Below, piece after piece: positions 7,484-8,918 of a stretch of DNA of 64,000 bases; the stretch's first letter is position 1, and each line of letters begins with the position of its first letter. Location of the stretch: positions 4,287 to 68,286 of the forward strand of contig CAJKRH010000004.1 of NCBI GenBank assembly GCA_905202255.1. Reading direction: 5' to 3'. Position numbers and translations under genes: made by a program. A model generated the notes under the pieces. That model saw nothing but the letters and a program-made list of their open reading frames with translations. It did not search any database and was not told the DNA's origin. The DNA comes from an uncultured Ruminococcus sp. (GTDB lineage Bacteria; Bacillota; Clostridia; Oscillospirales; CAG-272).

Positions 7484-7510
7484 TGTCCTAAAGGTTCTCC
7501 CCTTTAAGGC
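7484..7510. repeat. Left inverted repeat (27 bp) of putative invertible segment
   Basis: TGTCCTAAAGGTTCTCCCCTTTAAGGC is the exact reverse complement of 8892..8918. It has an internal dyad, CCTAAAGG / CCTTTAAGG, around an asymmetric TTCTCC spacer. Confidence 0.9.
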
Positions 7511-7547
7511 ATGGCAGGAAATGCTCCCGTGAGTCGGGCTATTTCAC

Positions 7548-8681
7548 TCACTCCGACTGAAAACATGACTGCAATGGATGACACATCATGAGTTTCTCCA
7601 TTTCCTGTTTCTTCTGCTCAAATGACGGATGAACGTATCGTTCCAAAGTAATTTTTACACTTGAATGCCCGAGAATTTCGGAAAGGCTTTTAGCGTTCAT
7701 TCCGTTTCGGATAGCCTCGGTTGCAAAGGTGTGGCGAAGCGCATGAAATGTATATCCGTGCCCATCCAGCTCGCATTCCCGAAGATAACCCATATATTTT
7801 CTGTAGTAAGTCCGCGGTTCGATGCAGCTGCCGGTTCCTGTTATCACATAGGCTTCATCACTCAGTTCCGAATACAGCTTCCTGAGCCATTCGGAAAAAG
7901 CTTTGGAAAGCGGTATCACCCGCGCGGAACTATCGCTTTTCGGGCTCGATAAAATCAGTTTTGTAGTCCGCTCTTCACCTTTTTCCTGCATTATCCGCTG
8001 AAGTGTATTCTTTACGGCAACGGTACAGTTATCAAAATCAAATGCGTCTTTTTTCAATGCACAAATCTCACCTATTCTCATTCCTGTCATGAGTGCGATA
8101 AGAACGCCTGTCCGTCCGTAATCAATATTTGACCACAGATACCGAAGCAGGCGTTCATAATCGGGTCGCGCTAATGCGATAATATTTCTTTTATATACTT
8201 TCGGTGCCGATACTTTCGGACTTATTCCGATGAAATTGTTTTCATAACCGAATTTCAGTATGGACTCAAGCAATATCGCGATATCTTTCACTGTTTTTGT
8301 TGCAAGCCCGTAATCGGAAAACAGATGGTCTATAAATCTGTCGACGGTAATTCTGTTCAGCTTTTGCATATCTGCTTTCTTCCAATATGGCATTATATAT
8401 CTTTCTATTCTGTATCGATAATTTGACATGGTGCTTTCCTTGACATGATGCTTTTTTCGATGCAGAAAAGCATGTGCAATCTCTTCAAATGAACCTTTTG
8501 CTTTTGCCGTATTTACTTCCGTATGATTCTGTTTCGCGGCAAGCTGTTTGGTTTTTGCCTCCGCATAACTTTTTGCATAAAGATATCCGTAAACAGCTCG
8601 GCTTCCGTCATAACCCTTTATGTACCGTGCCTCCCATCTCCCGTCTTTTCTGTGCCATATGTTTTCTCCCCTGCGTGACAT
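7548..8681 (-). CDS. Tyrosine recombinase / site-specific integrase with N-terminal AP2-like arm-binding domain
   Basis: 377 aa with a GGAGG RBS. N-terminus RRGENIWHRKDGRWEARYIKGYD. Catalytic motifs are present: LMTGMRIGEI (R), HALRHTFAT (HxxR) and LGHSSVKITLERYVH (H, Y). It is the only gene between the 27-bp inverted repeats. Confidence 0.9.
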   Translation of the reverse strand: MSRRGENIWHRKDGRWEARYIKGYDGSRAVYGYLYAKSYAEAKTKQLAAKQNHTEVNTAKAKGSFEEIAHAFLHRKKHHVKESTMSNYRYRIERYIMPYWKKADMQKLNRITVDRFIDHLFSDYGLATKTVKDIAILLESILKFGYENNFIGISPKVSAPKVYKRNIIALARPDYERLLRYLWSNIDYGRTGVLIALMTGMRIGEICALKKDAFDFDNCTVAVKNTLQRIMQEKGEERTTKLILSSPKSDSSARVIPLSKAFSEWLRKLYSELSDEAYVITGTGSCIEPRTYYRKYMGYLRECELDGHGYTFHALRHTFATEAIRNGMNAKSLSEILGHSSVKITLERYVHPSFEQKKQEMEKLMMCHPLQSCFQSE

Positions 8682-8825
8682 TTTCTTTTTTCCTCCGTTA
8701 TCTTTTTTTGACTGTAATCACGGAACAAAACCGACTTTTTTATCCCGTATATTATCTGATATCATAATAATACAGTAAAATTATGATTTTTTGCTATATT
8801 TTTTCGCGTTAATTTCCTTTTGCCA

Positions 8826-8854
8826 TTGACAAATTTTTCTCCTTGTGCTATAGT
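8826..8854 (+). promoter_or_regulatory. Near-consensus sigma-A promoter facing outward through the right IR
   Basis: TTGACA (8826-8831), a 17-nt spacer, then TGc-TATAGT (extended -10, 8846-8854). No ORF lies downstream on the plus strand. Confidence 0.6.
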
Positions 8855-8891
8855 TATACTGTATTAGTTTTGTTTGCATATATTTGTCTCC

Positions 8892-8918
8892 GCCTTAAAG
8901 GGGAGAACCTTTAGGACA
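8892..8918. repeat. Right inverted repeat (27 bp) of putative invertible segment
   Basis: GCCTTAAAGGGGAGAACCTTTAGGACA matches the reverse complement of 7484..7510 at 27/27 positions. Confidence 0.9.

Follow-up and report, generated by a model that had tools for sequence, protein, structure and literature searches.

A 1.4-kb integrase-bearing cassette as a probable self-contained invertible promoter switch beside a surface-protein operon

Phase variation by DNA inversion has been well mapped in Bacteroidales and C. difficile and poorly in the dominant, mostly uncultured gut Clostridia. The Hin/H-segment switch behind fljBA flagellar phase variation in Salmonella, like the related Gin, Cin, and Pin systems, holds a recombinase gene and an outward promoter inside an invertible segment of about 1 kb with repeats of about 26 bp, and its orientation sets the transcription of an adjoining surface-antigen operon. 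Hin belongs to the serine invertases, depends on an enhancer and on Fis, and recombines hix sites with a 2-bp crossover. Tyrosine recombinases act in E. coli fimS (FimB/FimE), the C. difficile RecV switches (cwpV, flgB, and cmrRST), and the Bacteroides Tsr-type invertons, in which a short promoter- or regulator-bearing segment (about 150-350 bp, with repeats of 9-30 bp) is inverted beside surface or motility genes in an ON/OFF manner; the recombinase gene lies elsewhere than in the switch and is often distant and shared by many switches. Some inverton scans may limit the spacing between repeats, to roughly 750 bp, and cassettes of 1.4 kb may be overlooked by such spacing-limited finders.

The window analyzed in this study, a stretch of 64 kb, contains a 1.4-kb cassette whose layout is Hin-like, although it is not a member of that group and uses a tyrosine recombinase and lox-like sites with a 6-nt spacer. 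Unlike fimS and the RecV and Tsr-type switches, it encloses its own integrase inside the segment, a 377-aa protein that resembles those of Tn916/Tn1549 and has an additional N-terminal domain. We interpret the cassette as a self-contained invertible promoter switch of a surface operon, with a probability of about 85%. Flipping very probably turns the neighboring surface-protein operon on and off; that operon expression tracks orientation is an inference. The features of the locus, in window coordinates, are as follows.

1..2244, minus strand: operon gene 4, with a signal peptide; 748-codon open frame cut by the window edge
2225..3424, minus strand: operon gene 3, 399 aa, with an N-terminal membrane anchor
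3417..4208, minus strand: operon gene 2, 263 aa, predicted lipoprotein without a family match
4211..7375, minus strand: operon gene 1, 1054 aa, lipoprotein-type collagen-repeat/Flg_new surface protein
7376..7483, minus strand: fixed leader from the repeat to the operon ATG, conserved with the cassette at other loci
7484..7510, plus strand: operon-proximal recombination site on the integrase 3' side, a 27/27 inverted repeat of 8892-8918, with outer arm GTCCTAAAGG, spacer TTCTCC (6 nt), and inner arm CCTTTAAGGC
7511..8891, no strand: predicted invertible segment, 1381 bp, assigned from sister-cassette inversion at the repeats and from family-wide architecture
7548..8681, minus strand: tyrosine recombinase (integrase), 377 aa, assigned from Pfam PF00589 and PF14659, catalytic residues, and dN/dS
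8751..8779, minus strand: candidate weak integrase promoter, TTTACT-17-GATAAT, 9/12, by consensus match only
8826..8854, plus strand: putative outward promoter Pout, with -35 TTGACA at 8826-8831, TG at 8846-8847, and -10 TATAGT at 8849-8854
8892..8918, minus strand: promoter-proximal recombination site in inverted orientation, an exact inverted repeat with a dyad
8975..9045, no strand: two hairpins, occupying 8975-9022 and, as a bidirectional intrinsic terminator, 9022-9045

An invertible promoter switch requires a segment bounded by recombination sites. The original prediction had described a perfect 27-bp inverted repeat built like a recombinase core site and lacking direct repeats at its flanks, and each of these points was reproduced. 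Positions 7484-7510 read TGTCCTAAAGGTTCTCCCCTTTAAGGC, which 8892-8918 repeats exactly as its reverse complement, and the sequence is present at these two positions only in the whole 64 kb; in 100 shuffles of the window, no chance match was expected even with three mismatches tolerated. Each copy contains a dyad in which GTCCTAAAGG and CCTTTAAGGC, matching at 8 of 10 arm positions, surround the TTCTCC spacer, and the 8892-8918 copy sits within a longer palindrome (8884-8925). No direct repeat or target-site duplication was found at the repeat flanks (CGGCGGAATT and GAGACAGGGG). Since the two sites with their asymmetric spacer are inverted, inversion is predicted and not excision. Additionally, the spacer was identical between both copies in all 11 repeat haplotypes of the window lineage, among which four spacer variants occur, and differences between the copies were confined to the arms. 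The requirement for a repeat-bounded segment is met by the exact repeat, the dyad with its spacer, and this co-variation, and the comparison supports the inference that the repeats behave as recombination sites.

The 377-aa ORF is the sole gene between the two repeats, and the segment also holds a 210-bp control region with divergent promoters. The encoded protein exceeded the cut-offs of Pfam Phage_integrase PF00589 (E 5e-25; 88.7 bits, cut-off 27.1) and Phage_int_SAM_3 PF14659 (41.1 bits, cut-off 22.6). In an alignment of 39 homologues, the columns of R202, K248, H313, R316, and H339 were invariant and Y349 was at least 90% conserved, completing the R-K-H-R-H-Y catalytic set of tyrosine recombinases, and the absence of a Resolvase domain in the recombinase excludes it from the serine invertases. 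Its earlier description as a lone tyrosine recombinase with intact motifs is confirmed by the Pfam matches and this conservation, and the Hin-like layout with a tyrosine enzyme by the Pfam assignment and the presence of Pout inside the repeats. The nearest solved structure is Tn1549 Int (PDB 6EN0/6EMY/6EMZ, E ~2e-16), with an alignment that takes in the region of HxxR and Y. A Pfam scan of the N-terminal 65 aa returned no match; a model of the N-terminal 70 aa (pLDDT 82) comprised three strands and one helix, and its top PDB fold match was the DNA-binding domain of Tn916 Int (1BB8), a weak hit (E 0.44). As for arm-type sites, there were candidate motifs only, and none was identified as such a site. 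The dN/dS of 0.04-0.12 against lineage variants shows that strong purifying selection acts on the integrase, and its role as the responsible enzyme is inferred from linkage and co-variation.

A further requirement is a promoter that faces the neighbor in one orientation only. Pout, TTGACA-17-(TG)cTATAGT, matches the consensus at 11 of 12 positions plus the extended -10 TG and is the top promoter match within 6800-10500; its -10 ends 37 bp from the repeat, and the predicted transcription start would fall near 8861, about 7 nt past 8854. Its activity is inferred from the consensus match only, with no transcript data. Beyond the hairpins lies the 3' end of a convergent BspA-type LRR gene (8994-10232), and we read the hairpins as stopping Pout transcripts in the sequenced orientation and insulating this gene. 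Inversion in silico placed the promoter at 7548-7576 on the minus strand, with a 166-nt leader to the ATG at 7375 and an unpaired RBS. The leader at 7376-7483 contained no convincing promoter of its own, and its best match (9/12) ended 2 nt ahead of the ATG. These results agree with the original prediction of a near-consensus outward promoter that runs into hairpins and a convergent gene, would be aimed at the operon after inversion through a leader then put at about 165 nt, and has no good fixed counterpart at the operon; the requirement itself is met by consensus, conservation, and geometry. An Rfam scan of 7000-9400 gave no hit above threshold and only terminator-like sub-threshold noise. 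Because no intrinsic terminator separates the integrase gene from the operon, the sequenced state may not be fully OFF.

The genes of the target operon encode proteins with lipoprotein or secretion signals. Gene 1 matched Pfam Collagen and Flg_new, has the lipobox LTSC, and showed Scl/Lcl-like adhesin repeats of NCBIfam below cut-off. Gene 4 has a full length of 2140 aa in complete contigs (gene call in L001), and its variants matched LRR and Flg_new.

In the mechanism that we propose, the Tn916/Tn1549-type tyrosine integrase would bind the two lox-like sites, each with 10-bp arms around the asymmetric 6-nt spacer, and, owing to their inverted placement, recombination between them would flip the intervening 1381-bp segment. 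The near-consensus sigma-70 promoter would fire outward via the site upstream of the integrase gene. In the sequenced orientation, it would run into the terminators behind the LRR gene, and the collagen-like operon, receiving at most read-through from the weak integrase promoter, would be OFF or LOW. In the flipped orientation, transcription from Pout would pass the other site and the 166-nt leader and turn the four-gene surface operon ON.

Inversion was assessed by comparing related loci. Two syntenic species (L018 and L026, 13 kb of synteny) carry the cassette in opposite orientations with breakpoints at the repeats. Within one strain, the cassette of a 40%-identical homologue, P0101, is inverted between two contigs (L106 and L111) that share a 100% identical flank of 2767 bp. 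A sister cassette with about 97% nucleotide identity to that of the window and the same repeat fronts a giant MACPF/Big_3 gene; at this locus, 4 of 18 metagenome contigs were flipped, with flanks 98-99.6% identical. At this sister locus, whose integrase falls in the window's own 90% cluster, L148 differed from L149, L150, L155, and L156 in having inverted flanks (98.3-99.6% identical) around a co-linear, 99.3% identical cassette. As far as assembled sequences can tell, the sister-cassette inversion decisively supports the inversion reading on comparative grounds. At the window locus, consisting of the LRR gene, the cassette, and the collagen-like operon, no flipped orientation was found in about 20 assembled contigs from independent samples. 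Samples with this locus include ERZ28575196/SAMEA3708791, ERR2136661, SRR29868747, SRR25701134, and SRR30025351, and the sister locus is represented in ERZ28615191, ERZ4561301, ERZ28614466, and ERZ27286980. Eight contigs of a 380-aa variant all had the sequenced orientation, and a scan of JGI metagenomes with a degenerate repeat pattern returned one contig (JGI/ENA), in the window orientation. Flipping at the window's own locus is inferred, not observed; since consensus assemblies show the majority state only, this copy could switch rarely or with a strong bias, or could have lost the ability to switch. Thus, the expectation that related loci would show both orientations was fulfilled by the syntenic species, the P0101 strain, and the sister cassette and not at the window locus (0/~20), while the proposal of inversion rather than insertion stands on the same flanks carrying both orientations without a target duplication.

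Logan contigs L101-L103 (1437-1449 bp, bounded by the repeats) were rejected as evidence of mixed orientation; together with a shared ATA, the repeat of this variant measures 30 bp, which is k-1 at k=31, and the assembly graph would branch there whether or not inversion occurred, a k-mer artefact. In the k99 contig L034, the palindromic ends of 99 bp are ambiguous on similar grounds and were set aside. L096, which seemed to connect the LRR gene with unrelated genes, matches the window only as far as the integrase gene start and is probably a chimera made in scaffolding, and the "truncated" integrases of L093 and L130 are short gene calls probably explained by N runs (106 and 10).

About 40 distant homologues in Clostridia genomes, with 34-43% identity, had the same layout, down to the offsets of the inverted, lox-like sites. 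Cultured carriers of homologous cassettes include Butyricicoccus pullicaecorum DSM 23266 (L030), Lachnospiraceae bacterium M18-1 (L040), Eubacterium sp. OM08-24 (L024), and Clostridium sp. AF27-2AA (L027). Of 80 homologous loci in GTDB genomes, 62 were flanked by an inverted repeat with 13 or more matching bases, and 41 loci were accepted, with 20-34 matching bases and sites about 170-290 bp upstream of the start and 25-110 bp downstream of the stop. Most repeat copies of the homologues were themselves dyads, for example TTCGCAGAGT-N5-ACTCTGCGAA, and 65% scored above the 95th percentile of control sequence. The outward promoter beat the inward one in 44 of 46 cassettes (mean score 11.54 outward, 9.09 inward, and 9.11 shuffled; Wilcoxon p=3e-9), its -10 lay 20-50 bp from the upstream site in 37 of the 46, and TTGACA was invariant among relatives of 57-100% identity and nearly invariant family-wide. 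These results indicate that an outward sigma-70 promoter at a fixed position is a predicted feature of the whole family. The gene next to the site in the P0101 homologue is preceded only by an RBS lying 23 nt from the repeat, so it must be driven from within the cassette. The ORF-based calls of neighboring genes were noisy and were used for coarse counts only; by these, 46 of 47 cassettes had at least one adjoining gene directed away from the cassette, and at loci with a single such neighbor, the promoter faced away from that gene in 17 cases and toward it in 5. The neighbors include SLH, collagen-like, and LPXTG-pilin proteins, Wzy, a sugar transferase, EssC-like proteins, and others.

Tentatively, and at somewhat less than even odds, the locus may belong to a large and so far undescribed family of autonomous promoter invertons of the "integrase-inside" type, carried by Lachnospiraceae, Oscillospiraceae, and related gut Clostridia. 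In each such module of about 1.4 kb, the lox-like inverted sites would bracket both a consensus outward promoter and a tyrosine integrase resembling those of Tn916/Tn1549, and the modules would serve as portable ON/OFF switches or two-way toggles beside genes for giant surface proteins, pili, polysaccharide, type VII secretion, conjugation, and defence-like functions. The modules may also drive strain-to-strain reshuffling of surface-gene neighborhoods.

The distribution of the cassettes has to be weighed against mobility. Near-identical copies occur in several contexts with different neighbors (LRR/collagen, 612-aa/collagen, 612-aa/MACPF, MMPL/MACPF, and sigma-70/MACPF), homologues were also found within a conjugative element, the P0101 group is 98% identical in the cassette and 80-86% in the flanks, and numerous homologues lie on contigs of about 1.4 kb. 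An IS-like mobile element, with the recombinase as transposase, the repeats as ends, and an incidental outward promoter, would account for such a pattern, but we regard this explanation as very unlikely. The short contigs are accounted for by repeat length relative to assembler k-mer size. A transposon should leave target-site duplications and copies whose homology ends at the repeats, and neither was the case: homology between dispersed copies continues 16-150 bp past both repeats, into the leader and about 45 nt of the 5' end of the collagen gene, and at the sister loci it reaches window position ~7330, so cutting at the repeats cannot have dispersed these copies. Moreover, the asymmetric spacers are inverted between the sites, the same flanks hold the cassette in both orientations, and the 17 to 5 excess of promoters facing away is unlike the expectation for a promoter-supplying insertion. 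The varied flank combinations could also mean that the cassettes chiefly provide portable homology, or substrates for site-specific recombination, by which chromosome segments and the neighborhoods of surface genes are reshuffled, with promoter switching secondary. We give this hardly any credence, as promoter position and strength are conserved down to 34-43% integrase identity, which pure recombination substrates would not need, and the directly observed events are simple in-place inversions; reshuffling is in any case compatible with promoter switching, and the roles are not mutually exclusive.

The contrast between the window locus, without flipped contigs, and the sister MACPF locus raises another reading, in which the switch is effectively locked here or the sequenced orientation is the expressing state, with the integrase and the operon forming one transcription unit driven by the integrase promoter and Pout serving, for example, a short transcript to the 9022-9045 terminator. 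The lack of a terminator from the integrase stop to the operon ATG fits this reading, as does the prevalence of the integrase-co-directional state (17 vs 5) at loci with one away-pointing neighbor. Nevertheless, we consider it unlikely: both repeat copies remain perfect with an intact spacer, the integrase is intact and under selection, the same cassette flips at the sister locus, and the match of the integrase promoter is weak (9/12). Strongly OFF-biased populations are ordinary among phase-variable surface antigens, as is generally known, and the invertible promoter switch is the reading that we retain.

A self-contained switch with its own recombinase and promoter explains how heritable and reversible ON/OFF control could be gained by very different genes. 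The neighbors possibly controlled include collagen-like, SLH, LPXTG, and MACPF surface proteins, as well as polysaccharide, EssC-like secretion, and conjugation genes. The cassettes can be searched for by a sequence-only signature (an integrase of ~375 aa, a dyad site ~200 bp upstream and ~25-110 bp downstream, and an outward TTGACA-17-TATAAT), and they flag candidate variable surface antigens relevant for immune, IgA, and phage interactions. As compact inversion modules with one enzyme and one site pair, they may also serve as genetic tools for Firmicutes.

A literature search found no description of a recombinase-inside, tyrosine-type arrangement in Clostridia, which agrees with the earlier remark that no described case was known in that class. 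The nearest case, from Providencia stuartii (Sekulovic et al. 2018, PMC5903667), is a single predicted fimbrial segment, putatively invertible, that encloses a recombinase ORF and measures 844 bp with 14-bp imperfect repeats. It resembles the cassette in enclosing the recombinase gene beside a surface-structure locus, and the layout is thus not wholly unprecedented outside Clostridia; however, it comes from a proteobacterium, and the study describes neither a family nor conservation of a promoter nor any Clostridial member (PMC5903667). We rate the invertible promoter switch as a known kind, of which the recombinase-inside, tyrosine-type form in Clostridia was not found described.

Among other tyrosine recombinase systems, Cre/loxP and FLP/FRT share with the cassette the inverted binding arms around a short asymmetric spacer that sets the outcome, with inverted sites giving inversion, and the FLP gene, like that of the integrase, lies within the DNA being inverted. 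Unlike the cassette, they serve plasmid or phage maintenance and amplification without promoter switching, and Cre and FLP have no detectable close sequence relationship to the integrase, whose top PDB match is Tn1549 Int. The Tn916/Tn1549 integrases are its closest solved relatives in the catalytic domain, with only the weak N-terminal fold match noted above, and these enzymes use att sites in direct orientation to excise and integrate large elements, whereas the core sites of the cassette are inverted, 1.4 kb apart, and enclose the integrase gene alone. The type I R-M hsdS shufflon at the ivr/cod locus of S. pneumoniae (CreX/PsrA), also from Firmicutes, carries its tyrosine recombinase gene within or between the inverting segments. 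Such shufflons recombine coding sequences (hsdS halves) to change specificity, whereas the cassette would reorient a promoter, with no coding sequence rearranged.

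The original prediction describes a real arrangement, and the locus is supported as a promoter inverton that encodes its own tyrosine integrase beside a surface-protein operon. Its parts are as follows.

7484-7510 and 8892-8918: inverted repeat, TGTCCTAAAGGTTCTCCCCTTTAAGGC and its exact reverse complement
7548-8681, minus strand: 377-aa integrase ORF, the sole gene between the repeats
8826-8854, plus strand: outward promoter, TTGACA-17-TGcTATAGT
8975-9022: hairpins
9022-9045: bidirectional terminator
from ATG 7375, minus strand: target operon of four envelope genes, left of the cassette

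With up to 3 mismatches allowed, the repeat motif has no further occurrence in the 64-kb window, and none is expected from 100 shuffles. Each copy has the predicted core-site build, a dyad of GTCCTAAAGG and CCTTTAAGGC around the 6-nt spacer TTCTCC, which is similar to the site architecture of Cre/FLP-type systems (lox/FRT). Strand exchange by tyrosine recombinases at such sites needs matched spacers. Among 11 repeat haplotypes of the window's lineage, the spacer occurred in four variants (TTCTCC, TTTTCC, TTTTTC, and TTTTCA) and was always identical between both copies of each cassette; copy-to-copy differences were confined to the repeat arms (positions 3, 19, 24, and 27). Additionally, the promoter-side copy sits in a longer palindrome (8884-8925, TGTCTCC...GGAGACA-like, 14 of 17 arm positions matching), so inversion would shorten the hairpin carried by the outward promoter's transcript.

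The integrase matched the Pfam families Phage_integrase (88.7 bits) and Phage_int_SAM_3, and its catalytic motifs proved intact: R202, K248, H313, R316, H339, and Y349 lie in columns invariant or at least 90% conserved among 39 aligned homologues. Its nearest solved structures were Tn1549 integrase entries (6EN0, 6EMY, and 6EMZ; E ~2e-16). The dN/dS ratio against lineage variants was 0.04-0.12, with dS reaching 0.56, and the enzyme is under strong purifying selection. The N-terminal 70 residues were modeled as three strands and a helix (pLDDT 82), with the Tn916 Int arm-binding domain as the top PDB fold match, but at an E value of only 0.44; heterobivalent DNA binding is a lead and not a finding. 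An inverted pair of TACTGTATTA motifs (8768-8784 and 8850-8866) overlaps the candidate integrase-promoter -35 and the start region of the outward promoter, and a GATTnCAGTCA block (8710-8721), kept in relatives down to 57%, lies directly upstream of the integrase ribosome-binding site (RBS). These motifs may be regulatory or arm-type sites. Two further tyrosine-recombinase-like ORFs lie elsewhere in the window, in tandem and with a slight overlap (51428-52654 and 52624-54048, plus strand; 408 and 474 aa). They share ~26% identity with the cassette integrase (tblastn E ~5e-25) and may be part of another mobile or recombination element.

The outward promoter was the top promoter match within 6800-10500 (11/12 plus an extended -10 TG). 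In the sequenced orientation it points, as predicted, through the right repeat into the hairpins, the terminator, and the 3' end of a convergent BspA-type LRR gene. Nearly the same terminator hairpin (AAAAGCCCTT-N4-AAGGGCTTTT) stands at both ends of this gene (9022-9045 and 10454-10477), and breaks in several Logan contigs coincide with these positions. Inversion in silico moved the promoter to 7548-7576 on the minus strand, giving a 166-nt leader to the operon's ATG in which the RBS is unpaired. The 108 nt from repeat to ATG held no credible promoter, and the original prediction likewise named no comparably good fixed one for the operon. The first protein of the operon is a 1054-aa lipoprotein that combines collagen triple-helix repeats with a Flg_new repeat. 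It is followed by a lipoprotein of 263 aa, a membrane-anchored protein of 399 aa, and a protein whose gene runs past the window edge (2140 aa in contigs with the whole gene). The housekeeping genes rpsF-ssb-rpsR and secG and a DUF1385 protein gene are also neighbors, and their named relatives assign the window to an uncultured gut bacterium of the Clostridia/Eubacteriales.

A family of such cassettes is widespread in Clostridia, and the window locus is a member. Integrase relatives number in the thousands, and a GTDB species-genome scan gave 80 loci with 34-43% identity, mainly in Lachnospiraceae, Oscillospiraceae, and unclassified Clostridia. A script that searched both sides of each integrase gene for a pair of inverted arms found at least 13 matching bases at 62 of these loci. 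The accepted cassettes comprised 41 loci (20-34 matching bases) and five loci fetched later, with the upstream arm ~170-290 bp before the start codon and the downstream arm ~25-110 bp past the stop. Repeat sequences vary from locus to locus, and most share an internal architecture (e.g., TTCGCAGAGT-N5-ACTCTGCGAA); dyad symmetry exceeded the 95th percentile of control sequence in 65% of repeats. Sites resembling the window's were found in relatives at 57% (GTCATAAAG-TTTCTCC-CTTTAAGAC) and 64% identity (TAAAGG-TTCTA-CCTTTA), and the site sequence tracks integrase phylogeny. One cassette (L025; 3015-3126 and 4549-4623) carries its site twice in tandem at each end, at a 39-bp spacing, so that its inverted repeat spans 73 bp, and alternative inversions may be possible there.

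For each cassette, the interval separating the upstream site from the integrase start was searched for sigma-70-type promoters, and the top outward and top inward matches were compared. Mean scores were 11.54 outward, 9.09 inward, and 9.11 in shuffled sequence, and scores of at least 11 were reached by 34/46 outward, 0/46 inward, and 1.7% of shuffled matches. The outward match was the better one in 44 of the 46 cassettes (Wilcoxon p=3e-9), the distance from the end of its -10 to the site was 20-50 bp in 37, and the -35 bases T, T, and G were each present in 45 or 46. TTGACA is invariant in relatives of 57-100% identity, and the DNA around it diverges. These results indicate that the outward promoter, set at a fixed distance inside one of the sites, defines the family and is not a chance match in the window.

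Four independent lines of comparative evidence, all from assembled sequences, show that the site-bounded segment inverts in this family, as predicted for such sites. Two Lachnospiraceae genomes (L018 and L026) with co-linear flanks and ~70% nucleotide identity across 13 kb have the cassette reversed, with breakpoints at the repeats; swapped flanks were also found in L013 versus L015 and L038, and in L056 versus L060. In one strain carrying a 40%-identical homologue (P0101), sampled twice in one study (L106 and L111), a flank of 2767 bp, 100% identical and containing a 58-aa/GrpE-like/Hsp70-like operon, adjoins one end of the cassette in L106 and the other end in L111, the cassettes too being 100% identical. 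The L111 contig terminates in the repeat followed by 50 nt of its other flank in reverse orientation, which suggests that this sample contains both junctions. The gene nearest to the site on its outer side is preceded by an RBS alone, 23 nt from the repeat, and thus depends on the cassette promoter. Within the window's own integrase cluster (127 sequences at 90% identity), the cassette of variant P0123 is ~97% identical to the window's, has the same repeat, and lies between an MMPL-like gene and a 32-aa remnant ORF followed by a 1857-aa MACPF/Big_3 protein gene. At this sister locus the integrase is co-directional with the MACPF gene in 14 contigs, and four contigs from independent samples (L149, L150, L155, and L156) are flipped, with the promoter facing the MACPF gene. 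Between L148 and L149, the cassette (1765-3199) is co-linear and 99.3% identical, and the flanks (99.6% and 98.3% identical) are inverted. The spacers are matched.

The opposite orientation was therefore confirmed at the sister copy and at homologues, but not at the window's own locus. There, ~20 assembled contigs from independent samples (LRR or 612-aa gene/cassette/collagen-like operon) and the single match of a metagenome scan all had the sequenced orientation. Assemblies show the majority state only; the promoter-away state dominates in vivo, and the switch is not thereby shown to be dead. That this copy flips is an inference from the sister copy, the intact sites, and the conserved enzyme, and a locked copy cannot be excluded. 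Nor can it be excluded that the sequenced state is the expressing one: no terminator was found from the integrase stop to the operon, so this state may permit weak read-through from the 9/12 integrase promoter. By a crude gene call, loci with only one outward-pointing neighbor were promoter-away in 17 cases and promoter-towards in 5; another 23, with genes pointing outward on either side, suggest two-way toggles. One contig (L096, 1689-4703) matches the window only to 45 nt inside the integrase gene, followed by unrelated DHOase and HMGL-like genes, and is probably a chimeric scaffold, although a real deletion or rearrangement is not excluded.

Reading the cassette as an insertion sequence fails, since no direct repeat or target duplication flanks the cassette, dispersed copies are homologous beyond the repeats, the site orientation predicts inversion and not excision, and flips in place were observed; the predicted unlikelihood of a simple insertion thus holds. 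That homology, a shared block with the 109-nt leader and the first ~45 nt of the collagen gene, accounts for the 32-aa remnant ORF ahead of the MACPF gene. Cassettes with integrases at least 90% identical (L001-L010, L129-L130, and L138-L165 versus window 7330-9071) have mixed neighbors: LRR-412 with collagen, 612-aa with collagen, 612-aa with MACPF/Big_3, MMPL with MACPF, and sigma-70-like with MACPF or a 1713-aa protein. This suggests rearrangement between loci, cassette-mediated or cassette-associated, and such a part in flank reshuffling is compatible with the switch function.

Genes beside the switches form the usual phase-variable repertoire with some less usual functions. Outward neighbors encode SLH and collagen/Flg_new proteins like the window's (L057 and L020), an LPXTG/SpaA pilin (L022), Wzy-type and sugar-transferase polysaccharide functions (L024, L063, and L035), EssC-like FtsK/FHA proteins (L049 and L066), HA-domain helicases (L018/L026), TetR regulators, a signal peptidase, a BlaR1-type peptidase, a sigma-70-like protein, and conjugative-element functions (variant P0070). 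The P0070 cassette (L115-L121) lies within a conjugative element, flanked by TraG/VirD4-HTH-DUF6809 on one side and a 161-aa/612-aa/VirB4-like (DUF87) block on the other, a hint that transfer or mating-surface genes could be phase-variable; its orientation was the same in 7/7 contigs. The L063 cassette has a cas3-like gene on one side and a polysaccharide-initiating sugar transferase on the other (L063 3274-5439 and 7269-8003). The operon regulated by the P0101 cassette (58 aa, GrpE-like, Hsp70/MreB-like) is an unusual target. That cassette (L105-L112) is ~98% identical between lineages and its flanking GrpE-like and Hsp70-like genes only 80-86%, suggesting horizontal exchange or conversion. 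Genes for rRNA adenine dimethylase (RrnaAD, Erm/KsgA-like) adjoin two cassettes (members of alignment A2), and phase-variable resistance is conceivable.

No description of a tyrosine recombinase inside an inverton in Clostridia was found in the full-text literature, subscription-only literature being outside the search. The nearest published case is one predicted fimbrial segment of Providencia stuartii with an enclosed recombinase ORF (PMC5903667). The proposed likeness to the Salmonella Hin/H segment holds for the layout, but the cassette is not a member of that system, since domain matches confirm a tyrosine recombinase and Hin is a serine recombinase. The cassette is a tyrosine-recombinase promoter switch, as are fimS, the C. 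difficile RecV switches, and the Bacteroides Tsr invertons; what sets it apart is the large Tn916/Tn1549-like integrase encoded within its own 1.4-kb segment.
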